A DNA stretch of 23,312 nt from a virus. Lineage: Duplodnaviria; Heunggongvirae; Uroviricota; Caudoviricetes. The number at the start of each line of letters is the position of its first letter. The first letter of the stretch is position 1. Where the stretch lies: IMG/VR virus record IMGVR_UViG_2703718778_000014; one strand, given 5' to 3'. Under the pieces are notes generated by a model. That model was given only the letters and a program-made list of their open reading frames with translations, did not search any database and was not told where the DNA came from. The position numbers and the translations under genes are program-made. Positions 3,131-15,851 of this stretch are shown here, piece by piece.

Positions 3131-3136
3131 GCATGT

Positions 3137-3304
3137 AAAAAGGCTCCTGCAATGAGGAGCCTGGATGTATGCCTAATCTCTGTATACTACATGGTGCCGG
3201 GTGCCTCCCGGTGAGTTCAGTATCAGCACCTGAACCCGCACAGAAAGGATAGAGTAGAAACACCTGCGCTGATATGCCCCTCCGCTCAGGGGGATTCACC
3301 ATGC
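3137..3304 (-). ncRNA. Candidate structured small RNA, repeat unit A (boundaries approximate)
   Basis: Conserved blocks shared with units B and C; variable 8-bp stem gagttcag (3213-3220) / ctgaaccc (3230-3237) fully paired only on the minus strand (G-U); minus-sense terminator hairpin 3142-3161 plus T-tract; no conserved ORF. Confidence 0.35.
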
Positions 3305-3398
3305 AGAACTTTTTTAACAACTCCCCGTCAGACAGGCAAGCATCAACCATCTGAACTGTGAGGGATTTAACATTTAACAACACAGCCTTTTCCCGCAC

Positions 3399-3563
3399 AA
3401 AAAAAGCCCCTCAGGAGAGGGGCCGATCGCTGTGTATACACCATAAGCAGCATAGTGCCGGGTGCCTCCCGGTAGATTCAGCCTGACTACTGAATCTGCG
3501 TATTGTGACCATCGCTATGGAGACCATGTCAGACGCCCCTCCGCACAGGGGGATTCACTATGC
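3399..3563 (-). ncRNA. Candidate structured small RNA, repeat unit B (boundaries approximate)
   Basis: Same conserved blocks; variable stem agattcag (3474-3481) / ctgaatct (3490-3497) with compensatory changes relative to A and C; strong minus-sense terminator gcccctcaggagaggggc (3406-3423) followed by TTTTTTT. Confidence 0.35.
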
Positions 3564-3779
3564 TGGCTCGTTTTTACAAGACTTCCATCAATCAGACAAT
3601 AGTCCATCAACCGAATTGTGAGTCATTTAACATTTCCATGAGGTAACTGATATCCAGCTAACAATCATCTGCAATGGACGAAGCCAGTTCCAGAACTTGC
3701 CCACACTACAGCAACAACCACTGCATTCCAAAAATGGAATTTTGGGAGATTACTTCTGCAAACAGCTACCGATAAATAT

Positions 3780-4061: not shown

Positions 4062-4065
4062 GTCC

Positions 4066-4245
4066 ATAAGAAAGCCCCTCCAGAGAGGGGCTGAAGCCGC
4101 ATTTCTGTATCACCATGAGCATGGTGCCGGGTGCCTCCCGGTGAGTTCAGCCCGGTGACACTAAACCCGCGTATTCTCGCTTACGATCATCAAAGAGATC
4201 ATACCGTTCACCAGTCGCCCCTCCGCACAGGGGGATTCACCATGC
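4066..4245 (-). ncRNA. Candidate structured small RNA, repeat unit C (boundaries approximate)
   Basis: Same conserved blocks; variable stem gagttcag (4143-4150) / ctaaaccc (4161-4168) has two mismatches on the plus strand that are G-U pairs on the minus strand; minus-sense terminator hairpin at 4074-4091. Confidence 0.35.
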
Positions 4246-4380
4246 GAAATTTTTTTAACAAATGCCCAGTCTGACAGGCAACTGTCAACTTACTGAATTG
4301 TGAGGAATTTAACACTTCACAGCACAATATCTTTCCAGCACCCCAAAATCATCTGGACAGGAGAAAATCTTCTCCCCCAG

Positions 4381-5087: not shown

Positions 5088-5164
5088 TGGACCGCCATCG
5101 AGGACTCGAACCCCGCGCAGCCAGCTCCGAAGGCTGGCGCTCTATCCCGATGAGCTAATGGCGG
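5088..5164 (-). tRNA. tRNA-Arg, anticodon UCG (77 nt including CCA)
   Basis: Manual cloverleaf on the minus strand: acceptor CCGCCAT/ATGGCGG, D-arm GCTC...GAGC, anticodon stem CCAGC/GCTGG with loop CUUCGGA, T-arm CGGGG-TTCGAGT-CCTCG, 3' CCA. C1-G72 pair is unusual. Confidence 0.7.
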
Positions 5165-5173
5165 TATGTGATA

Positions 5174-5249
5174 TGGTGGCCCTTGCTGGATTTGAACCAG
5201 CGACCTGGCGATTATGAGTCGCTCGCTCTCACCACTGAGCTAAAGGGCC
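5174..5249 (-). tRNA. tRNA-Ile2 type with anticodon CAU (ileX/ileZ-like; tRNA-Met not formally excluded)
   Basis: Minus strand reads GGCCCTTTAGCTCAGTGGTGAGAGCGAGCGACTCATAATCGCCAGGTCGCTGGTTCAAATCCAGCAAGGGCCACCA; canonical arms, anticodon loop CUCAUAA; close to E. coli ileX as recalled. Confidence 0.8.
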
Positions 5250-5289: not shown

Positions 5290-6348
5290 TCATCCGTTCT
5301 GGCTGGCTAAATCCTGAACTTCCCTGACCGTCTGCTCAAAACGTTCAGTCTCCAGCTCAACGCCTGTAGCACGACGCCCCAACACCATCGCTGCTTTGAC
5401 TGTCGAACCCGACCCCATGAAGAAATCTGCAACCAGGTCACCCGGACGACTGCTCGCACTGATTATCTGCTGCAGCATTTCTGCCGGTTTTTCGCACGGA
5501 TGTTTCCCGGGATAGTACTGCACCGGTTTATGCGTCCACACATCGGTGTACGGCACCCGCACCGTCACACCGAAATACCGCCGCAGATGCTTATATTCAC
5601 TCTGCAGTTCCGTATACTGCCGGTTCAGTTCACTGTATGTGCTGACCAGTTGGTGATGTGGCTTTTCCAGTTCTCCGCGCTGATGCTTCTCTTCTGCCAC
5701 CCGGGCAAACAGCGCCTGTAATTTCAGATAATCGCTTTCGTCCGGTAACTGCCACTGGCTGGCACTGAACCAGTGCGACACCATATTTTTCTTTCCTGTG
5801 GCATCCACTATCTGTTTTGCCGTTATCCCCAGGGCAGCACGCGCATCACGAAAGTAAGAAATCAGCGGGGCCATCACATGCTGTTTCAGTGCCCTGCCCT
5901 TCGCCTCATACCCGGCATCTTTCGGGCGATACGGCCCCTGATAATGTTCCGCGAACAGAATGCGCTCTGTGGCGGGGAAATACGCCCTCAGGCTTTCCTT
6001 GTTGCACCCGTTCCAGCGTCCGGACGGCTTTGCCCAGATAATATGGTTCAGCACACTGAAGTGTTCACGCATCATGATTTCGATATCAGATGCCAGGCGA
6101 TGGCCACAGAACAGGTAAAGACTTCCGGCAGGTTTCAGCACCCGCCAGAACTGCGCAAGACACTGGTCCAGCCACTTCAGGTAATCATCGTCGCCCTTCC
6201 ACTGGTTATCCCAGCCCTCAGGCTTCACTTTAAAGTACGGCGGGTCCGTGACTATCAGATCAACAGAATTTTCGGGTAACGACCGGATAAATTCCAGGCA
6301 GTCAGCGTTGATTAACTCACAACTGGATATTTTTACAGTGTTAAGCAT
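5290..6348 (-). CDS. DNA methyltransferase, N6-adenine/N4-cytosine family (DPPY motif), 352 aa
   Basis: ATG at 6348; motif IV DPPY near the N-terminus (LIVTDPPYF) and motif I FxGxG near the C-terminus (DFFMGSGST), i.e. beta-class order; position after Q and before tRNAs as in Stx-type phages. Confidence 0.8.
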   Translation of the reverse strand: MLNTVKISSCELINADCLEFIRSLPENSVDLIVTDPPYFKVKPEGWDNQWKGDDDYLKWLDQCLAQFWRVLKPAGSLYLFCGHRLASDIEIMMREHFSVLNHIIWAKPSGRWNGCNKESLRAYFPATERILFAEHYQGPYRPKDAGYEAKGRALKQHVMAPLISYFRDARAALGITAKQIVDATGKKNMVSHWFSASQWQLPDESDYLKLQALFARVAEEKHQRGELEKPHHQLVSTYSELNRQYTELQSEYKHLRRYFGVTVRVPYTDVWTHKPVQYYPGKHPCEKPAEMLQQIISASSRPGDLVADFFMGSGSTVKAAMVLGRRATGVELETERFEQTVREVQDLASQNG

Positions 6349-6849: not shown

Positions 6850-6878
6850 AATATATGCTCTTCAGTTCTATTTTGCAA
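6850..6878 (-). promoter_or_regulatory. Candidate late promoter pR' just after the Q gene
   Basis: On the minus strand: -35 TTGCAA (6878-6873), 17-nt spacer, -10 TATATT (6855-6850); about 60-75 nt upstream of the tR'-like terminator, as in the lambda pR'-tR' arrangement. Confidence 0.3.
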
Positions 6879-7551
6879 GATATGGTTCTAAATTAATCGA
6901 CTTTTGCCGTGAACGTACCCGCATTACTGAAATAAGAGCATCCCTGTCCAGCATCTCTGCACTACCCCGCATAGCCAACCAGTGAGGCCTGTGTGTTTTT
7001 GTCCATGTAGATTTAGCAACTCCTATGAACACCGCTAACTCCTGATGTTCATAGGTCTCACGCCCTGCCAGCTCACTCTTCACATCCTGTGCCGCCAGCC
7101 AAATCAGTTTCTTCAGACGATCCAGCGTTTTCCCTGCAATTTTTCTGGTACCAGCCTGAGCTTTAAACTCACCCCATACCCATTGTGTTATAGTGACCTG
7201 ATCTTCCCAGCAAACATTTCCACTGTAGCACCACAGTAACCACGCCTTCTGATGTTCTTCCAGTTCCAGAACGGCACGCCGCCACGATGATGTTGCAAAC
7301 TCAACCGGACTGACCAGCGCAATTGATGAGCCTTTCGCCAGTGATTGTTTACCCGGGATCGGTTGATTATCCCGCGTGATCATTTTTCCGGTTACCTCAT
7401 CGCGATAACGAATTTTTTTGCGTCTGTAACACCCTGTATCGAACAGGGCATTCTCCTGCCAGGCTTCCAGCTGGCCTTTTGTCGCCCCACTGAGATCCGC
7501 AGTGGCAATCATGAGTTGCTCACGAACAAACTGTAAATACTGGTTATTCAT
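6868..7551 (-). CDS. Late antiterminator Q-like protein (QuuQ/YdfT-like family by position and size)
   Basis: ATG at 7551 overlaps the rusA stop (ATGA); sits between rusA and the pR'/terminator region as Q does in lambdoid phages. Family assignment is from gene order and recalled Qin-prophage context, not a motif match. Confidence 0.5.
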   Translation of the reverse strand: MNNQYLQFVREQLMIATADLSGATKGQLEAWQENALFDTGCYRRKKIRYRDEVTGKMITRDNQPIPGKQSLAKGSSIALVSPVEFATSSWRRAVLELEEHQKAWLLWCYSGNVCWEDQVTITQWVWGEFKAQAGTRKIAGKTLDRLKKLIWLAAQDVKSELAGRETYEHQELAVFIGVAKSTWTKTHRPHWLAMRGSAEMLDRDALISVMRVRSRQKSINLEPYLAK

Positions 7552-7907
7552 GCGCACTCCAGTTCTGTGATTTTTATCCCCAGCCGCCCGCCAGGAACAG
7601 GCAGGCCACGCACAATATTGATTTCATCAAACTGCTCATCGTCCATTAACAACCCCGCATGCGTAAGCGCATCCAGCGGCGCTTTCAGAATATTGTCCAG
7701 GTCACGGCGGCGCTTATCCGGTGGCTCTGCAATAATCCTGATTACCAGCCTTCCGGACAGGCTTAATTTCAGCCGCTGCTGGTTAACAATAAGCGCCACA
7801 GCACGGCGATAGCGCTTTCCCTCCTCCGAGATAAAATATGTGCTGCCACGACGACGCCAGTAGGTGTTCACCGTTGGCGGGTAAGGTAAAACCAAATCTA
7901 TGAGCAT
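7548..7907 (-). CDS. rusA: Holliday junction resolvase RusA (119 aa)
   Basis: ATG at 7907 with RBS GAGGTG; conserved RusA blocks PPTVNTYW, DKRRRDLDN and GGRLGIKITE. Confidence 0.8.
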   Translation of the reverse strand: MLIDLVLPYPPTVNTYWRRRGSTYFISEEGKRYRRAVALIVNQQRLKLSLSGRLVIRIIAEPPDKRRRDLDNILKAPLDALTHAGLLMDDEQFDEINIVRGLPVPGGRLGIKITELECA

Positions 7908-7919
7908 CAGTCACCTCTT

Positions 7920-8969
7920 TTACCCGAGCACGCCAGTCGCAAAGGCGTGATCAAGAAAATGAAAAATTAACTCAACCTGGGACCCGTACTTTTTCTCAAA
8001 CTCCAGCGGGTCAGCATGAAGTTCGTTGTGGTGCTCCCGGCACAACGGTAGTGTGAAAATATCGTGGGATTTTGTCCCCATACCGCCCTGCCCATGGCCA
8101 ATCAAGTGATGCGGATCATCAGCTGGCTTTCCACAGCATGCACACGGCTGCGTCTTAACCCAGCGCGTGAACTTTTCATTAACCCAGCGACGACGTTTAG
8201 GCCGTTTCATGAAAGATTCCGGGGACTCCGGATCAACGGCGATGCTTACTACCGTCTTTTCCTGTGGCGTGGTTTGTGGCTGGTGGGCGTGAAGCGGTGG
8301 CGCTATGTTTTTTGTCCGCTGCTTCAGGATGCTGGTGGCGGTCTGCTCTCCCGGTATGATGTCGCTCTCACTGTATACGGAGCGAATTTTTTCCACCGGT
8401 AATCCCAGCGAACGACGCAATACAGATTCCGGAAGCGCATCAGCCACCTGATTGCAGACCGCCCACCAGGATAATTCAGCCAGCGATAATTCACGCTCCT
8501 GTGCGCCATTCATTACGTGACGGATGACGTCAATCATCCAGGCGGCCAGATTCTGTTGAGCAAGTAGCTCCAGTGAATCAGATGTCTGCTCCCGCAGGTG
8601 GTTGTCGCAGTGCCAGCACAACACCATCGCGCCGGTACTGTAACGGTGAATGACGGTTTCGCTGTGATGATAATCGCCGTGTGGCCACTGGCAGGATTTC
8701 ACGTGACGTAATAACCAGTCAGACAGTACACCAGCGCCACCCGCAGCACGGATCACCCGCTCATCGCTGAAAAATGGCAGTAATGATTTATCTTCCGCCA
8801 GCGGCTGGCGAACGGCAGGTACAAACCCGGACGGCAGAGCACGCATGCTTTTCGGTTCCGGCTCCACCAGCACCCTGCCGCAATGAAAAACAGGCAGTGA
8901 TTCGCGTCCGGGCTTAAGGACCACCAGGCCAAGTTCCGGCACCAGAACAGGTCGAAGTAATACCCGCAC
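7920..8969 (-). CDS. DUF968 (YdfU-like) protein with C-terminal HNH-like zinc-finger motif
   Basis: GTG start at 8969 with strong RBS GGAGGT; C-terminus CACCGKPADDPHHLIGHGQGG...LCREHHNELH resembles HNH nuclease signatures; 349 aa as in Qin-prophage YdfU. Confidence 0.55.
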   Translation of the reverse strand: MRVLLRPVLVPELGLVVLKPGRESLPVFHCGRVLVEPEPKSMRALPSGFVPAVRQPLAEDKSLLPFFSDERVIRAAGGAGVLSDWLLRHVKSCQWPHGDYHHSETVIHRYSTGAMVLCWHCDNHLREQTSDSLELLAQQNLAAWMIDVIRHVMNGAQERELSLAELSWWAVCNQVADALPESVLRRSLGLPVEKIRSVYSESDIIPGEQTATSILKQRTKNIAPPLHAHQPQTTPQEKTVVSIAVDPESPESFMKRPKRRRWVNEKFTRWVKTQPCACCGKPADDPHHLIGHGQGGMGTKSHDIFTLPLCREHHNELHADPLEFEKKYGSQVELIFHFLDHAFATGVLG

Positions 8970-8970
8970 G

Positions 8971-9243
8971 TTACCTCCAGATACGTTGCTGGAATGTGCG
9001 GGACGGACGCGGTGGACGTTCGGAATAAGGGAGCCTGACAGAGATTATCCAGTGACGATAATTGAGGCTGAGGGCTTTCTTAACCTCGTATCCGCGCCTG
9101 CGGTAACACTGAATCAGCCATTCGGCCTGTTCTTCAGTGCATGGAGGATGCTGGTACCAGTGGGTTTTAAATACGTGCGAATGCCGCCCCCGCTTAATGG
9201 CCGGGACGGCTTCAGAATTGTGGGATTTTATATGTTGCGCCAT
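8971..9243 (-). CDS. Small phage protein, possibly YbcO-like (DUF1364)
   Basis: ATG at 9243 with RBS GGAGAA (the ORF-track start at 9261 is an upstream GTG); Cys/His-rich 90-aa protein preceding DUF968 and rusA as ybcO does in DLP12. Family call is tentative. Confidence 0.4.
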   Translation of the reverse strand: MAQHIKSHNSEAVPAIKRGRHSHVFKTHWYQHPPCTEEQAEWLIQCYRRRGYEVKKALSLNYRHWIISVRLPYSERPPRPSRTFQQRIWR

Positions 9244-9337
9244 CGGGTTCTCCGGTGACACAGCAGGTGCCAGTTGTTCAGGCTGGCTGGATGATTTTAA
9301 CCAGAATGCGATAAAAAGTGTATAAGACCATCACATA

Positions 9338-9368
9338 TTGCATTCATGCAAAATGATTGTTACATAAT
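9338..9368 (+). promoter_or_regulatory. Candidate sigma70 promoter for the plus-strand two-gene cassette
   Basis: -35 TTGCAT (9338-9343), 17-nt spacer, TACATAAT (9361-9368) in an AT-rich divergent intergenic region. Confidence 0.3.
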
Positions 9369-9415
9369 ATTACTTAATAAGTATAGGTTTTACCGTTTTA
9401 TCATTAGAAGATTGT

Positions 9416-10642
9416 ATGTCAGGAACCATAACAAAAATCAGCACAGGGGAAAATGTTCTGTCAGCAGCAATCCATCGCATTGAATGGTTGTTCGAAACGT
9501 TTAATGAGGTCTGCTTGTCTTTTTCTGGTGGCAAAGACTCTACTGTGCTTTTCCATCTTGTGGCAGAAGTCGCCAGTAGAAAAAAACGTCGTTTTTCGGT
9601 TTTATTCATTGACTGGGAAGCCCAATATCAGTGCACGATTAATCATATCCAAAAGATGAGGGAAATGTACCGGCATGTGACAGACAATTTTTACTGGGTA
9701 GCGCTTCCTCTGACTACGGTAAATGGCGTCTCTCAGTTTCAGCCAGAATGGATATGTTGGGAGCCAGGTGTAGAATGGGTTCGTCAGCCACCAGATGACG
9801 CTATTACAGATATGTCGTATTTCCCATTTTATCGGTATGCCATGACGTTTGAAGAATTTGTTCCGGCATTTTCTTCCTGGTTTGCCGGTAACCGATGTGG
9901 AGTGGGAATACTAACTGGTGTTCGTGCTGATGAATCGCTCAATCGCTTTATGGGACTGGTGTCTCAGCGCAAACTGAGATATGCAGATGATAAACCCTGG
10001 AGCACCGCTTCACCCGATGGTTTTTACTACACCATGTATCCATTGTATGACTGGAAAACAAATGATATATGGACGTATAACTCAAGAACCCGCGCCATCT
10101 ACAATCCCCTGTACGACCTAATGTACCGTGCCGGAGTGTCGTTACGCAACATGCGTGTTTGTGAGCCCTTTGGCCCGGAACAGCGTAAGGGGCTGTGGCT
10201 TTACCATGTTCTGGAGCCGGAAACCTGGGCCAGGATGTGTGAGCGAGTGTCAGGGGCTGCCAGTGGCGCTCTTTATGCCAATGAAAGCGGTGCCTATTTT
10301 GCTCTGCGTAAACGAATCACAAAACCGGCTCATCATACCTGGCGCAGCTACGCAATGTTCATGCTGGATGTTATGCCAGAAAGAACAGCAGAACATTACC
10401 GTAACAAAATTGCAGTCTACCTGCGCTGGTATCAGACGCGGGGCTTCCCGGATGATATCCCGGATGAACAGGAGAATGACCTGGGGAGCCGGGATATCCC
10501 GTCCTGGCGACGTATCTGTAAGACGCTCATAAAGAATGACTTCTGGTGCCGGACCCTCTCCTTCAGTCCGAACAAACCCCGGCACTATGAGCGTTATCTG
10601 CAACGAATGAAGGAAAGGAGGAAAGAATGGGGGATTCTGTGA
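9416..10642 (+). CDS. ibrA: PAPS-reductase-like PP-loop ATP pyrophosphatase (IbrA-like, DndC-like fold), 408 aa
   Basis: PP-loop motif SFSGGKDS near the N-terminus; 3' end overlaps the next gene by 16 nt. Confidence 0.65.
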   Translation: MSGTITKISTGENVLSAAIHRIEWLFETFNEVCLSFSGGKDSTVLFHLVAEVASRKKRRFSVLFIDWEAQYQCTINHIQKMREMYRHVTDNFYWVALPLTTVNGVSQFQPEWICWEPGVEWVRQPPDDAITDMSYFPFYRYAMTFEEFVPAFSSWFAGNRCGVGILTGVRADESLNRFMGLVSQRKLRYADDKPWSTASPDGFYYTMYPLYDWKTNDIWTYNSRTRAIYNPLYDLMYRAGVSLRNMRVCEPFGPEQRKGLWLYHVLEPETWARMCERVSGAASGALYANESGAYFALRKRITKPAHHTWRSYAMFMLDVMPERTAEHYRNKIAVYLRWYQTRGFPDDIPDEQENDLGSRDIPSWRRICKTLIKNDFWCRTLSFSPNKPRHYERYLQRMKERRKEWGIL

Positions 10643-11271
10643 CGCCTGAGATGGATGTACTAAGCAACATGATTCGTCAGTACTTCAGTCGGGAACAGCC
10701 CGAAGAAGAGTCCATACGAGCCCTTAACCATCTGCGCAGGGTACTGCATGAAGTCAGTCCTTTTGCACAGGAGCCTGTAGACTGTGTGCTGTGGGTGAAA
10801 GCGGATGAGGTGGTAGCCAACGATTATAACCCCAATGTCATGGCACCAAGTGAGAAGAAACTGCTGAAGCAGTCACTGGAAAAAGATGGTTTCACACAAC
10901 CGGTGGTGGTGTCAGAGGAGAAGAATCATTATCTGGTGGTGGATGGTTTTCATCGTCAGTTATTGGGCAGAGAATCAGTTACAGGAAAACGTCTGAGGGG
11001 CTGGCTGCCTGTAGCCTGTATTAATCCAGAGAGAAAAGGGCAAGCCGCACGCATTGCCGCAACCATTCGACATAACCGGGCTAGGGGGAAACACCAGATA
11101 GACTCAGTGTCTGATATTGTAAGAGATCTTTCACGCTTGGGATGGGCAGATGAACGCATTGGCACTGAGTTGGGTATGGATCAGGATGAAGTACTGAGAC
11201 TTAAACAAATTAGCGGGCTAACTGAGTTATTTCAGGAAGTGGATTTCAGCCCGGCATGGACAGTTAAATAG
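10627..11271 (+). CDS. ibrB: ParB N-terminal-domain (ParB/sulfiredoxin-like nuclease) protein (IbrB-like), 214 aa
   Basis: Strong RBS AAGGAGG; ParB-box-like HYLVVDGFHR and basic TIRHNRARG block; translationally coupled to the upstream gene. Confidence 0.65.
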   Translation: MGDSVTPEMDVLSNMIRQYFSREQPEEESIRALNHLRRVLHEVSPFAQEPVDCVLWVKADEVVANDYNPNVMAPSEKKLLKQSLEKDGFTQPVVVSEEKNHYLVVDGFHRQLLGRESVTGKRLRGWLPVACINPERKGQAARIAATIRHNRARGKHQIDSVSDIVRDLSRLGWADERIGTELGMDQDEVLRLKQISGLTELFQEVDFSPAWTVK

Positions 11272-11324
11272 CAAGCTCGACTTACTCCCGGCAAGGCAAC
11301 AAAATGATAACTAATACAACTCAA

Positions 11325-11347
11325 GGGCGATTAATATCGCCCCTTTT
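11325..11347 (+). terminator. Intrinsic terminator after the ParB-like gene
   Basis: Stem gggcgat (11325-11331) / atcgccc (11336-11342) followed by TTTT. Confidence 0.5.
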
Positions 11348-11436: not shown

Positions 11437-11541
11437 TCAGCTCCCCAGACGATCCATCAAAAGCACGACCGGGCAGTAAACACCCACAACAACAATAACG
11501 GCCAGAGCGCCTTCCATTGCCAGTGAGATATCATCCGACAT
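11437..11541 (-). CDS. Small hydrophobic peptide (34 aa)
   Basis: ATG at 11541 with strong RBS AGGAGGG; MSDDISLAMEGALAVIVVVGVYCPVVLLMDRLGS; below the ORF-track length cutoff. Confidence 0.3.
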   Translation of the reverse strand: MSDDISLAMEGALAVIVVVGVYCPVVLLMDRLGS

Positions 11542-11576: not shown

Positions 11577-11660
11577 TTACCCCCACCGACAAATAACATA
11601 TATTAAAAAAGCGATAACCATAGCAACGCCTGTAATTGCAAATGCTTCAGGCCAGTTCAT
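11577..11660 (-). CDS. Small hydrophobic peptide (27 aa)
   Basis: ATG at 11660 overlaps the stop of the DUF551 gene (ATGA) with GGAGG upstream; MNWPEAFAITGVAMVIAFLIYVICRWG. Confidence 0.3.
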   Translation of the reverse strand: MNWPEAFAITGVAMVIAFLIYVICRWG

Positions 11661-12169
11661 TGGCGCACCTCCTGCGGCGGTTCTGGTAGCGGCATCCAGC
11701 CGGTTACATTGCGGCTCTGTGTTTCGAAAAATTCATCACCATTACGGACTACATCAAAAAACTCACCGTCTCGATATTGCGCATAAAGAACGAATGCGCC
11801 ATCACATAAAATAATTACGTGCTGACCATCATCCGGCATTCGCTCACTACAGCTTATCCAACCATCCGGAGTTACCGGATAGTTGGTTGACGTTTCCGAG
11901 ATTTCCCGAAAATTATTGGTTGACGACCCCTTATTTTCCCGAAAGTTTCCAGCCTGAAGCATGGCGGCGCGGTGACACCAGATAATCCAGCCAAGCGCCA
12001 TATCCCATGCCATGTATTCTCTATCGCCATTTTTTGCTCTGCGGCGATCTACAGATTCTCCGAAACGCTTCTCCATAAATAATTCATAGGCTGCTCGTTC
12101 ATCCGATACTGCTGCCAGTGATGCCAGCGCAATCCGTGCCAGCTCTTCCGCTTCTTCTGCTGGAAGCAC
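11657..12169 (-). CDS. DUF551-domain phage protein
   Basis: C-terminal block PDGWISCSERMPDDGQHVIIL...GWMPLPEPP typical of DUF551; GTG start at 12169 (an in-frame ATG start further in is possible). Confidence 0.55.
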   Translation of the reverse strand: MLPAEEAEELARIALASLAAVSDERAAYELFMEKRFGESVDRRRAKNGDREYMAWDMALGWIIWCHRAAMLQAGNFRENKGSSTNNFREISETSTNYPVTPDGWISCSERMPDDGQHVIILCDGAFVLYAQYRDGEFFDVVRNGDEFFETQSRNVTGWMPLPEPPQEVRQ

Positions 12170-12240: not shown

Positions 12241-12756
12241 TCATGCCGCGTTTCCTTCTTTCTTATTAACAATTACACCGTCATATATTTCATTAAGGTG
12301 CCCTCTCAACTCCATGCGCCTTAATGCAGATAACATGTAATCGCATTCAACCTGCTTATTTCCAGTAAATGGCTTATCGTCAGGATTACCCCAACAGCAA
12401 TTACCCCTGGGCCATCCATGTACTTTCCGTACTCTTCCGTTAACAACGTGAAGTAATCCCCAGCCGGGAGGTAAATCCTCAACTGAAATAATTCCCGGCT
12501 CACTAATAAAGAATCGCCAGTCGCCCATGCCAAGTGAGGGATTTTTACGGAAACGCTTTTTTCTATCTGCCAACAAGTCAGCACGAGAACACTTCGCCTC
12601 TATCAGGCATGATGCTGAATTTCTGAATCCCATAGCATCTGGCTGTTCTCCGGTACTGGTTACAGCAACAAAGCGGTCATGAAAGCAAACCTTGAACCCG
12701 TTGCGCTTAAGGAACTTGTACGCAATCTGACAGAGTTCGTGGTGTGTTAACGCCAT
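12241..12756 (-). CDS. Hypothetical protein with a PD-(D/E)xK-like motif (possible VRR-NUC-type nuclease)
   Basis: ATG at 12756 with RBS AAAGGAG; motif QPDAMGF...CLIEAKCS fits the PD...ExK nuclease core; the fold assignment is an inference. Confidence 0.45.
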   Translation of the reverse strand: MALTHHELCQIAYKFLKRNGFKVCFHDRFVAVTSTGEQPDAMGFRNSASCLIEAKCSRADLLADRKKRFRKNPSLGMGDWRFFISEPGIISVEDLPPGWGLLHVVNGRVRKVHGWPRGNCCWGNPDDKPFTGNKQVECDYMLSALRRMELRGHLNEIYDGVIVNKKEGNAA

Positions 12757-14056: not shown

Positions 14057-14370
14057 TCCTGAACCCTCCTGTCGAAATAAACGTAGTTATTCACTGCGCC
14101 CAACTTCATCCCAAACTTTTCGGCAATTTCCCGTTGGGGTACGCCACGCTGATGCAGTTGCCGCGCCAGCTCAATATCACGCTGTGAGAATTTGGCTGAC
14201 TGGTGATAATCACCCCGTAACATCATGCTGATCCCCAGTTCCCGCGCTTTCGTCCTGACGGCTGACTCACTACGGCCAATCAGATAACCGATGCTTTCGA
14301 CTCTCATCGTTCCCGCACACTGCCGGAGTATCAGGATTTCAGCCCAACGCCACTTCTTCCAGCCACTCAC
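14053..14370 (-). CDS. Putative DNA-binding protein with two helix-turn-helix-like segments
   Basis: GTG at 14370 overlapping the stop of the 44-aa ORF (GTGA); segments SESAVRTKARELGI and QREIAEKFGMKLGAVNNYV look like HTH motifs; the ORF-track upstream extension to 14457 looks non-coding. Confidence 0.4.
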   Translation of the reverse strand: MSGWKKWRWAEILILRQCAGTMRVESIGYLIGRSESAVRTKARELGISMMLRGDYHQSAKFSQRDIELARQLHQRGVPQREIAEKFGMKLGAVNNYVYFDRRVQE

Positions 14371-14501
14371 CGCTGCTGCTCTCTGGTGGTGGTAATATCC
14401 CGGAGAATATCCCTGTGTTTGTTCAGTTCCCGCAGCGCAGCACAGACTCGCTCCCACTTCTGGACATCACTTTTCGCCCGACGCAGTTCGCGGTTTGCCA
14501 T
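14367..14501 (-). CDS. Small basic protein (44 aa), translationally coupled to the downstream HTH gene
   Basis: ATG at 14501, 6 nt after the preceding gene's stop; MANRELRRAKSDVQKWERVCAALRELNKHRDILRDITTTREQQR; not in the ORF track (short). Confidence 0.3.
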   Translation of the reverse strand: MANRELRRAKSDVQKWERVCAALRELNKHRDILRDITTTREQQR

Positions 14502-14507
14502 ATGCAG

Positions 14508-15083
14508 CTATGGTAAAACCAGGTCATCCGCTTGCGTTTCGGTGAACAGTGGCAACGACTGCACAATATCCACCACAGTTTCTGTTTTAATATCTTCCTG
14601 TGTAGTCGTTTGCTGGACTGGTAACGCAACACCTGCTGGCTGAGGAAGGGCTTTACCATCCGTTTCCGCTACAGATGCGGCTTTCGGCTCTACTGGTAAA
14701 TTATCGCCCGGCATGCAGTAACGAAATTTACCGCCCTGATTCACGCGAATCAGACGCCCTTTGCTGATTGCCATTGCCAGCGATGAATTCGCACGGCGGG
14801 AGGTAATTCCGAACATCAATGCCAGCTCATCCGCCGTTTGTGGGCCATGTTGTTCAATCGCCTCTGTCAGCATTTGCGCCGTCACTTTTGGTGGTTGTAT
14901 CACAGATTCACTTTCCCCTGCCTGAGTCAGCCACCACATCGCCCCCCTGTTATCCGCTTCACCACGGCGTTTCAGTTTCCACAGTTCGTTGACAGCCTCT
15001 TCACGACTGATTCCAAGGCGCGCAGCCACCACATGTGAAGAGGCTTTTTTCAGTGCTTTCAGTGCGTCAGATACGGTTTCCAT
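14508..15083 (-). CDS. Phage protein with N-terminal winged-helix-like domain (191 aa)
   Basis: ATG at 15083 with RBS GGAGGA; N-terminal [34 protein letters not shown]; family not firmly recognised. Confidence 0.5.
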
Positions 15084-15104: not shown

Positions 15105-15851
15105 TTACTTCACAACCCTCATATTGCTGACATTTGGACGCCAGCTATCCCAGTTAAACGTCACCCATCGACCACCGTTCATGGTCATGCGGTCCATAAT
15201 CCTCTCACCAAGAAGCGTACTCATTGCGGCATGATTCAGGTTTGTTAACATCCCGACACTGCACAGTGATGCTGTCCGGCGATCAATTATCTGGTGCAAT
15301 ACCACCTGCTCGTTTTTCGTCTCCCGCTGGACGCCTATTTCATCCAGGACCAGCAAATCAACCCCGCAAAGCTCCTGTAAAAATTTTTCCCCGGATTTGC
15401 CGTTGTCGTAGCTGTCATGCAACACGCTCATGACGTCAGACACGGTGACGATAATCACGCTGCGCCCCTTCACCATCAGCCGGTTGCCCATCGCCGCTGC
15501 AAGGTGATTTTTCCCGGTGCCGGTTTTACCGCTGAACACAAAATTCGTGCACCCGGTCATCAGTTCGTCAGCTATGGATTTGGCCTAGCTCAGCGCGTAT
15601 TTTTGCCCGTCGTTCTGCACCTGATAATTTGCAAACGAGCATTTGCTGTGCAGAGGCTGGATGCCCGAACGATTCAGGATTTTTTCCACCCGCAACTGGC
15701 GATTCTGGCAGTTAATCTCCTCGCTGCGTTTTCGTCCTTCAGCAAGTTGCCATTCCCGCCACTCCTCCACCGTCCGGTACGGTGGAACCGCCCCCAGTGG
15801 TGCAAGTCTGCGAATACATTCAAGAACCCCAACTGCCGCAATGTTTTTCAT
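15105..15851 (-). pseudogene. DnaC-like helicase loader (YdaV-like) interrupted by a single in-frame amber codon
   Basis: N-terminal fragment (15588..15851, ends ...FANYQVQNDGQKYALS) and C-terminal fragment (15105..15560, FSGKTGTGKNHLAAA Walker A) are in one frame separated by TAG at 15585-15587; read-through gives ...KYALS*AKSIADELMTG..., collinear with E. coli DnaC. Confidence 0.7.

Follow-up and report, generated by a model that had tools for sequence, protein, structure and literature searches.

The IbrA/IbrB cassette of a lambdoid Escherichia coli prophage: an apparently obligate pair of a PP-loop protein and a ParB-like protein, tentatively read as a DNA-modifying unit

The ibrA and ibrB genes have been described as joint activators of prophage eib expression (Sandt et al. 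2002, as cited in PMC7649339), and ibrB is induced, together with an adjacent perC-family gene, when Shiga-toxigenic Escherichia coli (STEC) makes contact with epithelial cells (PMC7649339). The corresponding genes of strain K-12, ybdN and ybdM (ybdNM), are repressed by the LysR regulator YbdO/CitR. A comparable combination of proteins is found among the systems that modify DNA: ParB-like partners of DNA-modifying enzymes have precedents in PMC10853773 and PMC12839542, and the DndC enzyme has as its hallmark a 4Fe-4S site, formed by three cysteines, plus a cysteine dyad (PMC10853773). Here, we have analysed a stretch of 23,312 nucleotides from a tailed virus of the class Caudoviricetes (IMG/VR record IMGVR_UViG_2703718778_000014), to which we refer as “the window”, and which carries at positions 9262-11347 a cassette of two genes that we compare with these systems.

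Both genes of the cassette are intact and start with ATG: the ibrA-type gene is located on the plus strand at 9416-10642 and encodes 408 amino acids, and the ibrB-type gene follows on the same strand at 10627-11271 and encodes 214 amino acids, with 16 nucleotides shared between the two reading frames according to the analysis of open reading frames (ORFs). The encoded proteins have 92% and 87% identity to the proteins annotated as IbrA and IbrB in Escherichia phage PhiR5_2, and 58% and 56% identity, over the full length, to YbdN and YbdM of K-12, while RefSeq names the first “phosphoadenosine phosphosulfate reductase” and the second “IbrB-like domain-containing protein”. On the grounds of these identities and of the RefSeq name, the pair is, as judged from its sequence, a member of the IbrA/IbrB (YbdN/YbdM) family. 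The ratio of nonsynonymous to synonymous substitution rates (dN/dS) between the window and the PhiR5_2 allele is 0.045 for ibrA and 0.057 for ibrB, i.e. both genes are under purifying selection, and thus they are not chance ORFs. Only two things about the window are new, the allele and the antisense placement in a prophage cargo slot; the name of the family dates from 2002, and RefSeq annotates it.

The first protein is composed of two parts: the N-terminal part of approximately 240 residues is a PP-loop domain, matched by the Pfam family PAPS_reduct (PF01507; 2e-16, 60.8 bits against a cut-off of 22.5), and the C-terminal part is the helical DUF3440 (PF11922; 3e-33, 115.7 bits against a cut-off of 25), with the protein belonging to PHROG family 2302 (1.4e-85). 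The PP-loop motif SGGKDS is located at residues 37-42, and the ATP-type loop SFSGGKDS is invariant across IbrA-type sequences, while its counterpart in CysH is degenerate; the family motifs D66/E68, R170xxES174 and D217/W219 are also kept. The fold is that of the adenine-nucleotide alpha-hydrolases, in the subgroup of the phosphoadenosine phosphosulfate (PAPS) reductases: its relatives in structural comparison are the PAPS domain of FAD synthase (score 14.9), the reductases of adenosine phosphosulfate (APS) and PAPS (13-14), CysD (13.4), TilS (12.0) and TtuA (11.6). The structural comparison of the DUF3440 half has returned no match.

The cysteine content of IbrA is informative with regard to its chemistry. 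In close relatives, the conserved cysteines are C249 and C378 and no others, and one or both are lost in the homologues from Streptococcus, Mycobacterium and Faecalibacterium phages; a persulfide relay through these two cysteines, which was considered as a candidate, has been dropped, because the distant phage homologues do not conserve them. The chemistries of CysH and DndC both need cysteines that the IbrA family lacks, and therefore IbrA is neither of the two. Its membership in DndC is likewise rejected by the model scores, as the DndC equivalog TIGR03183 yields 16.6 bits against a cut-off of 290.4, and the DndC model of PADLOC matches only locally (6e-5). Since the cysteine chemistry of CysH and DndC is excluded, the nearest mechanistic analogues of IbrA would be the adenylyl-transferring CysD and FMN adenylyltransferase.

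The second protein, IbrB, belongs to PHROG family 2159 (4.5e-83), and its relation to ParB is of a fainter kind: the Pfam family ParB_N is matched at 7e-4 with 20 bits, below the cut-off of 26.3, but the match recurs in 14 of 14 diverse members of the IbrB family, at best with an E-value of 2.7e-5. When the IbrB family profile is compared with the PDB, it finds Helicobacter pylori ParB (3e-5) and Noc (0.014), and weakly Spo0J and SbnI. These weak but consistent matches suggest that IbrB carries a ParB N-domain. In this ParB/sulfiredoxin-like domain are located the motifs NDYNPN, DGFHR (residues 106-110), which is aligned with the GERR motif of ParB and replaces it, and TIRHNRARGxH (residues 146-156), while the conserved C-terminus resembles a helix-turn-helix (LGMDQDEVLRLKQ). 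The family signature, NDYNPN / DGFHR / T(I/V)RHNRA(R/K)GxH / LGMxxDE, is retained across phyla at 34-43% identity; the second ParB-like proteins that such phages encode, which are of the ordinary kind, lack it. A gene of this second kind has been seen near the pair in Pipefish and Taranis. A further match of IbrB, over residues 56-192, is to the N-terminal domain of PHROG 498, a family of phage DNA methyltransferases (1.4e-8), which is a fusion precedent for an IbrB-type domain that guides a DNA-modifying enzyme. Neither the window nor the surveyed loci contain a ParA-like gene or a parS-type partition context.

A preliminary description of the cassette, made from the letters of the window, had proposed a PP-loop enzyme next to a ParB-like protein, which agrees with the SGGKDS motif, the PAPS_reduct match and the fold of IbrA, and with the ParB_N profile matches of IbrB, sub-threshold as they are. 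It had noted a resemblance to IbrA/IbrB, which has turned out to be an understatement, given the actual membership in the family; the word “nuclease”, applied there to IbrB, is an annotation label that finds no support in this analysis. The relationship to DndC/SspD that it had drawn holds at the level of the superfamily and goes no further, as the DndC cysteines and the DndD/E partners are absent. Lastly, it had regarded the biochemical activity of such pairs as not established, and indeed our literature search has found no biochemical function: in the searchable full-text literature, no enzymatic activity is reported for IbrA/IbrB, DUF3440 or YbdN/YbdM, the publications retrieved being genome reports and comparative studies.

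The comparison of genomic loci has revealed that the two genes are kept together. An ibrB homologue directly follows ibrA in all 79 species-representative genome loci, and the pair is complete in all 76 IMG/VR viral contigs that can be assessed, a count which leaves out four contigs that end within the locus. In viral contigs of lower similarity (45-50% identity), ibrB comes first and ibrA last, with a small ORF in between; adjacency has thus outlived rearrangement, given that the pair stays together in the inverted order. The pairing of ibrA with ibrB looks obligatory. No third gene is constant across the contexts inspected. Fusions of IbrA with IbrB are limited, among 150 distant representatives, to two short chimeric fragments (P0344 and P0347), and the longer homologues have no extra Pfam domain, except for one ABC_tran fragment.

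The phage pairs are mostly co-oriented with genes that handle DNA. In proteobacterial viral contigs, the neighbours include DnaB, a C5-cytosine methyltransferase, NinG, DUF1376, the beta clamp and RecT; an SNF2-related helicase is located immediately upstream of the pair in Streptococcus phage PY1 and in Flavobacterium phage FCV-1, and a PD-(D/E)XK protein is encoded upstream of it in mycobacteriophage Nebkiss. Packaging genes are a recurrent neighbour too, in phages that are not related to one another, with the pair either beside the packaging module or within it: in Pipefish (locus L169, 1-5341) IbrA, IbrB and TerL are gp4, gp5 and gp6, in Faecalibacterium phage Taranis (L171, 2818-7927) the order is IbrA, IbrB, TerS, TerL, and in FCV-1 (L174, 404-8201) it is TerL, SNF2, IbrB, IbrA, portal.

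Additional genes accompany the pair in part of its range. A GNAT acetyltransferase is located between the two genes (order A-GNAT-B) on the Ralstonia solanacearum megaplasmid (L173, 7203-7640), and between or beside them in four IMG/VR contigs (L106, L114, L153 and L161); this placement hints at a variant of the system with three enzymes, and the window has no such gene. In 33 distant phage contigs, a conserved ORF of approximately 130 amino acids (“cluster 2”) is situated between ibrB and ibrA (for example at 7616-8008 in L113, and also in L106, L109, L112, L122 and others), with the motifs EW..scE, N..AW.G.A, pEd.tR.AW and AN..Ad..I..W; it belongs to no Pfam or PHROG family. Neither this ORF nor the second small companion ORF of the distant phages (“cluster 12”) has a homologue in the window.

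The family is widespread, comprising about 1100 clusters (at 50% identity, E <= 1e-10). Among 50,697 cultured phage records, IbrA is matched in 220 and IbrB in 221, and the listed counts by genus are equal for the two proteins, with the exception of a single unclassified record: Flavobacterium 90, Mycobacterium 60, Streptococcus 21, Arthrobacter 12, Bacillus 8, Microbacterium 5, and others. The hosts of the cultured phages that carry the pair fall into four phyla (Bacteroidota, Actinobacteria, Firmicutes and Proteobacteria), and the pair has been reported from a Heimdallarchaeal virus in a study of Asgard archaea. Flavobacterium columnare phage FCL-2, which carries both proteins, has been reported to be without an integrase and without lysogeny. 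In bacteria, a megablast search shows that 2094 of 5426 complete E. coli genomes (~39%) carry the pair, with a DNA identity of 80-90%, and that the allele of the window (>=99%) is present in only nine. The pair is located in an island beside cobU in sequence type 131 (ST131), and in an island with a PerC-family regulator next to it in O157:H7; moreover, it occurs on 740 plasmids, of which 323 are from Klebsiella, with one plasmid copy flanked by insertion sequences (IS). An enrichment of ibrB has been reported in Klebsiella isolates from liver abscesses.

Some expression data are available for the K-12 pair, whose ybdO/citR-ybdNM locus corresponds to positions 4748-7619 of L003 in our survey. 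Deletion of citR raises ybdN by log2 5.5 (PMC9068703, Table 1), along with the whole CysB sulfur regulon by log2 1.7-3.1 (cysDNC, cysJIH, cysAWU, tcyP, yeeE) and the flagellar genes (PMC9068703); the authors of that work do not comment on a link between the regulon changes and YbdNM. This transcriptome is compatible with YbdNM draining a donor of sulfur or adenylyl groups, or with YbdNM acting as regulators, and it proves neither.

Our preferred interpretation, to which we give somewhat less than an even chance, is that IbrB binds DNA and recruits IbrA for the ATP-dependent adenylylation or modification of a DNA target, and that phages make use of this on their own DNA. We have arrived at it because of the obligate pairing, the invariant loop under purifying selection, the DNA-handling and packaging context, the occasional GNAT enzyme and three precedents: IbrAB would be a stripped-down analogue of DndB/DndC, of DpdB/DpdA and of the ParB-methyltransferase fusions. 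IbrA and IbrB would work on nucleic acid as an obligate unit, in which IbrB, having a ParB/sulfiredoxin-type nucleotide pocket and a helix-turn-helix, would bind DNA and probably a nucleotide, and would position or activate IbrA; the latter, having the fold of CysD, FAD synthase and the PAPS reductases, would use ATP to adenylylate the DNA or a substrate bound to it, so modifying the target. In phages, the pair would serve their own DNA and be expressed with the replication or packaging genes, while in lysogens and islands, where the only reported output is that silent prophage genes (eib) are switched on, the modification may be linked to gene activation. A more extensive version of the same proposal, which we consider rather unlikely in its entirety, is a minimal, hitherto undescribed kind of two-protein system where a nucleotide-dependent DNA binder of the ParB/sulfiredoxin fold guides a cysteine-independent PP-loop adenylyltransferase that marks DNA, with the help of a GNAT acyltransferase in some lineages; phages of at least four bacterial phyla and, according to one report, viruses of Asgard archaea would employ it in replication or packaging, and in E. 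coli and on Klebsiella hypervirulence plasmids it would have been co-opted as an epigenetic switch for silent prophage and virulence genes.

Several observations weigh against the modification of DNA by IbrAB. No IbrAB or YbdNM system is known to produce a modified base or a modified backbone, and no gene for a sulfur or amine donor, or for a DndD/E-type partner, is located beside the pair. A family-wide conserved cysteine is absent from the IbrA alignments, so the chemistry of DndC, CysH and TtuA is not transferable to IbrA. With respect to the partner, the ParB scores of IbrB are below threshold and its AlphaFold model, built from an alignment of 19 sequences, is unusable (mean predicted local distance difference test score, pLDDT, 46.5), hence the assignment of its fold rests on sequence profiles; the interaction between IbrA and IbrB is a prediction from their genomic association. 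In addition, the sole experimental phenotype is transcriptional, and a pure regulator explains it equally well. In that case, the two proteins may be transcription co-activators that cause no covalent change, IbrB spreading on DNA and opposing silencing, and IbrA making, consuming or sensing a nucleotide ligand that controls it, which in our judgement is a minority possibility. VirB and KorB are examples of regulators of this type within the ParB family, and the C-terminus of IbrB that resembles a helix-turn-helix, together with its ParB-type pocket, would be suited to such a role; so would the sole published phenotype, as conveyed by the citing literature, i.e. the activation of prophage eib genes. 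DndB, of the ParB superfamily, has been reported to be an ATP-dependent transcriptional regulator (PMC10853773), ibrB of STEC is co-induced with the adjacent perC-family regulator on contact with host cells, and the derepression of ybdNM in K-12 coincides with large regulon changes. However, co-activation leaves unexplained the constant enzyme of 408 amino acids, with its invariant PP-loop and a dN/dS of about 0.05, the placement among replication and packaging genes, including in a phage described as non-lysogenic, and the occasional GNAT enzyme.

Other functions that have been considered fit the observations less well. A module of anti-phage defence or superinfection exclusion, carried as prophage cargo, would agree with the self-contained antisense layout, with a slot that holds hok/gef, rem and paa in sister prophages, with the mobility of the pair through islands, the IS-flanked plasmid copy and the 740 plasmids, and with a distant similarity to BrxP and DndC. 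In PADLOC-DB 2.0, however, no full-length defence-model match has been found for IbrA or IbrB, the best matches being BrxP (4e-8, 30 bits), limited to a PP-loop stretch of 80 residues (17-96), and PglX (0.004, 39 residues); no effector, whether a nuclease or of another kind, accompanies the pair, many phages (among them one described as non-lysogenic) have it in their core early or packaging modules, and K-12 has a core chromosomal paralogue under a LysR repressor, all of which make defence improbable. A pair that modifies RNA, in particular tRNA, and alters decoding or RNA stability would affect expression indirectly, but the closest folds of IbrA are in the PAPS-reductase subgroup (FAD synthase, CysD, APS reductase) and not among the tRNA enzymes, the partner is ParB-like with a resemblance to helix-turn-helix proteins, the context is that of DNA metabolism, and the Pfam search has detected no THUMP, PUA or other RNA-binding domain; we regard this function as distinctly improbable. 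As for IbrA being a genuine PAPS reductase, i.e. an auxiliary metabolic gene of sulfate assimilation, the name in RefSeq and PHROG and the PAPS-reductase fold speak in its favour, yet the reductase models score far below their cut-offs (TIGR02057, 33.9 against 254.2 bits; NF002537, 37.6 against 154), the PP-loop is of the canonical ATP type in contrast to the degenerate loop of CysH, the alignment shows no counterpart of the cysteine in the C-terminal ECGLH of CysH, and IbrA is always paired with a ParB-like partner and has the additional DUF3440. We have rejected the sulfur-metabolism reading on the basis of the model scores and the missing catalytic residues, and its probability is extremely low.

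For the annotation of viral genomes, this analysis indicates that the labels “PAPS reductase”, “partition protein” and “auxiliary metabolic gene” are misleading for the pair; viral-ecology papers tally it as sulfur metabolism. The chemistry of IbrAB, once known, would correct such annotations and might reveal a new DNA mark or a switch for prophage genes. The cassette of the window is in itself an ordinary one.

Within the window, the two overlapping plus-strand genes are antisense to the minus-strand early operon, as the preliminary description had stated and as the ORF analysis agrees: all neighbours of the cassette are on the minus strand. On one side are located the genes of antiterminator Q (6868-7557), RusA (7548-7907) and DUF968/YdfU (7920-8969) and an ORF of 96 amino acids (8971-9261), and on the other, beyond ibrB, those of DUF551 (11657-12169), an Ea22-like protein and replication proteins; positive GC skew is limited to about 9000-11000, i.e. 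to the cassette. That the pair is self-contained, and not a fragment of a longer operon, is borne out by the 79 genome loci and 76 viral contigs described above, where the third gene is never constant, and the survey of neighbourhoods that had been called for finds the pair adjacent in every context inspected. The “moron” layout attributed to it holds for the E. coli cargo slot and not for the module in general, as many phages co-orient the pair with replication or packaging genes.

The signals for the expression of the cassette are of uneven strength. The plus-strand spacer upstream of ibrA (9262-9415; 154 nucleotides, 67% A+T) may contain a promoter or operator, but a promoter scan has found no match to the sigma-70 consensus in it, and the candidate promoter of the preliminary description has not been upheld in that form. 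Approximately 75 nucleotides before the ibrA start are common to the window and the PhiR5_2-type allele; this segment has TTGCAT and CATAAT, separated by 19 nucleotides, and contains at 9338-9351 a 14-nucleotide palindrome, TTGCATTCATGCAA, with no other occurrence in the window. The ribosome-binding site of ibrA is weak in comparison with the strong Shine-Dalgarno sequence of ibrB, AGGAGG, which is located on the plus strand within the 3' end of ibrA (10616-10621), five nucleotides before the ATG; this internal site and the 16-nucleotide overlap, which is kept in close alleles, suggest that the translation of the two genes is coupled.

Downstream of ibrB, where the preliminary description had placed a clean terminator (11325-11347), there is a stable hairpin at 11325-11342, GGGCGAT-TAAT-ATCGCCC, to which no strand has been assigned: its stem is G+C-rich and has 7 base pairs, its loop has 4 nucleotides, and its energy is -12.2 kcal/mol (z = -3.4), with none of 200 shuffles equally stable. 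The adjective “clean” is less apt, as the plus-strand tail has only four T and the hairpin is situated between convergent genes; it is possibly a weak terminator, usable by either strand. Taken together, the results of the terminator scan are not above chance (3 found, 2.5 expected), and the Rfam search has returned no RNA family for the cassette or its immediate surroundings. The convergent neighbour that shares the hairpin is a strongly hydrophobic minus-strand ORF of 34 amino acids (MSDDISLAMEGALAVIVVVGVYCPVVLLMDRLGS, 11437-11541), preceded by an AGGAGG site; the Pfam search finds no match for it, and it has the appearance of a short membrane peptide, perhaps a toxin-like one.

The cassette and its flanks are 100% identical to a lambdoid prophage located beside ompW in Shiga-toxigenic E. 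coli, for example S19-651. The homology of related prophages to the window ends at 9263 on the left and restarts at about 11667 on the right, with 97% identity to a Shiga toxin (Stx) phage. In sister ompW prophages, the slot that follows ydfU and a small ORF is occupied by rem, by gef of the hok family and by the adhesin gene paa/adfO, and in further relatives by genes annotated “toxin to Rem” and “host killer” and by IS elements. These observations support the view that this ibrAB copy is cargo with an orientation of its own, inserted where a Rac/Qin-like lambdoid prophage of E. coli has a variable slot. A search for direct or inverted repeats around the cassette has found none, and hence nothing points to a transposition footprint. 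In the RefSeq record of the identical prophage, two early genes on the minus strand, those of DUF1627 (~14367-15083) and of a DnaC-like ATP-binding replication protein (~15105-15851), are marked as pseudogenes with internal stops, and for this reason the prophage of the cassette may be defective.

Further features of the same prophage have been recorded, all of them on the minus strand. An orphan DNA methyltransferase of 352 amino acids (5290-6348; PADLOC MTase_II, 5.6e-162), with no restriction partner nearby, is the sole neighbour of the cassette that matches the defence library. Two phage tRNA genes are located at 5088-5164 and 5174-5249, a tRNA-Arg (tcg) and a tRNA with the anticodon CAT, the latter being called Met by ARAGORN and Ile in the RefSeq record of a near-identical prophage; in this stretch, the window and the S19-651 record are out of register by approximately 271 base pairs. 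Three copies of the small RNA family STnc100 (3131-3332, 3397-3592 and 4062-4274; 121-172 bits against a gathering score of 47) are situated downstream of antiterminator Q, in the interval from the tRNA genes to the gene of a SASA-family carbohydrate esterase in the late region (924-2912, 662 amino acids), which is named after the matching gene of 1,989 nucleotides in RefSeq. On the other side of the cassette, an ORF of 171 amino acids (12241-12756) has no Pfam or PADLOC match, and the RefSeq annotation at its position is only a frameshifted fragment.

When the window pair is set beside the known systems, the closest are the members of its own family. The IbrAB island of ECOR-9 and the annotated alleles have the same two-gene architecture, domains and overlap, and the window pair differs from the usual ibrAB alleles in being located antisense in a nin-type slot of a prophage, and not in a chromosomal island or plasmid, and in the rarity of its allele. 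YbdN and YbdM of K-12 are full-length paralogues with the same order and overlap; ybdNM, however, is a core chromosomal locus with an adjacent LysR repressor, while the window copy has no adjacent regulator. Beyond the family, DndB and DndC are alike in placing a ParB-superfamily protein beside a PP-loop ATP pyrophosphatase of the PAPS-reductase family, but IbrA has neither the three-cysteine Fe-S site nor the cysteine dyad of DndC, and DndA, DndD (an ABC/SMC-like ATPase), DndE, SspB and SspC are found neither in the window nor in the surveyed neighbourhoods. BrxP, from type 4 BREX, is likewise a PAPS-reductase-family PP-loop protein of a system based on DNA modification, though IbrA matches only locally its model of 779 positions, and the vicinity of the pair is free of PglZ, BrxC and other BREX genes. 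CysD and the PAPS domain of eukaryotic FAD synthase share the fold of IbrA, which differs from them in adding DUF3440 and in being without a GTPase partner of the CysN type. Finally, DpdB/DpdA, which modify DNA with 7-deazaguanine, and the PHROG 498 fusions likewise combine a ParB-like domain with a DNA-modifying enzyme, which in their case is a transglycosylase or a methyltransferase, and in the IbrA/IbrB pair would be an unfused PP-loop protein.

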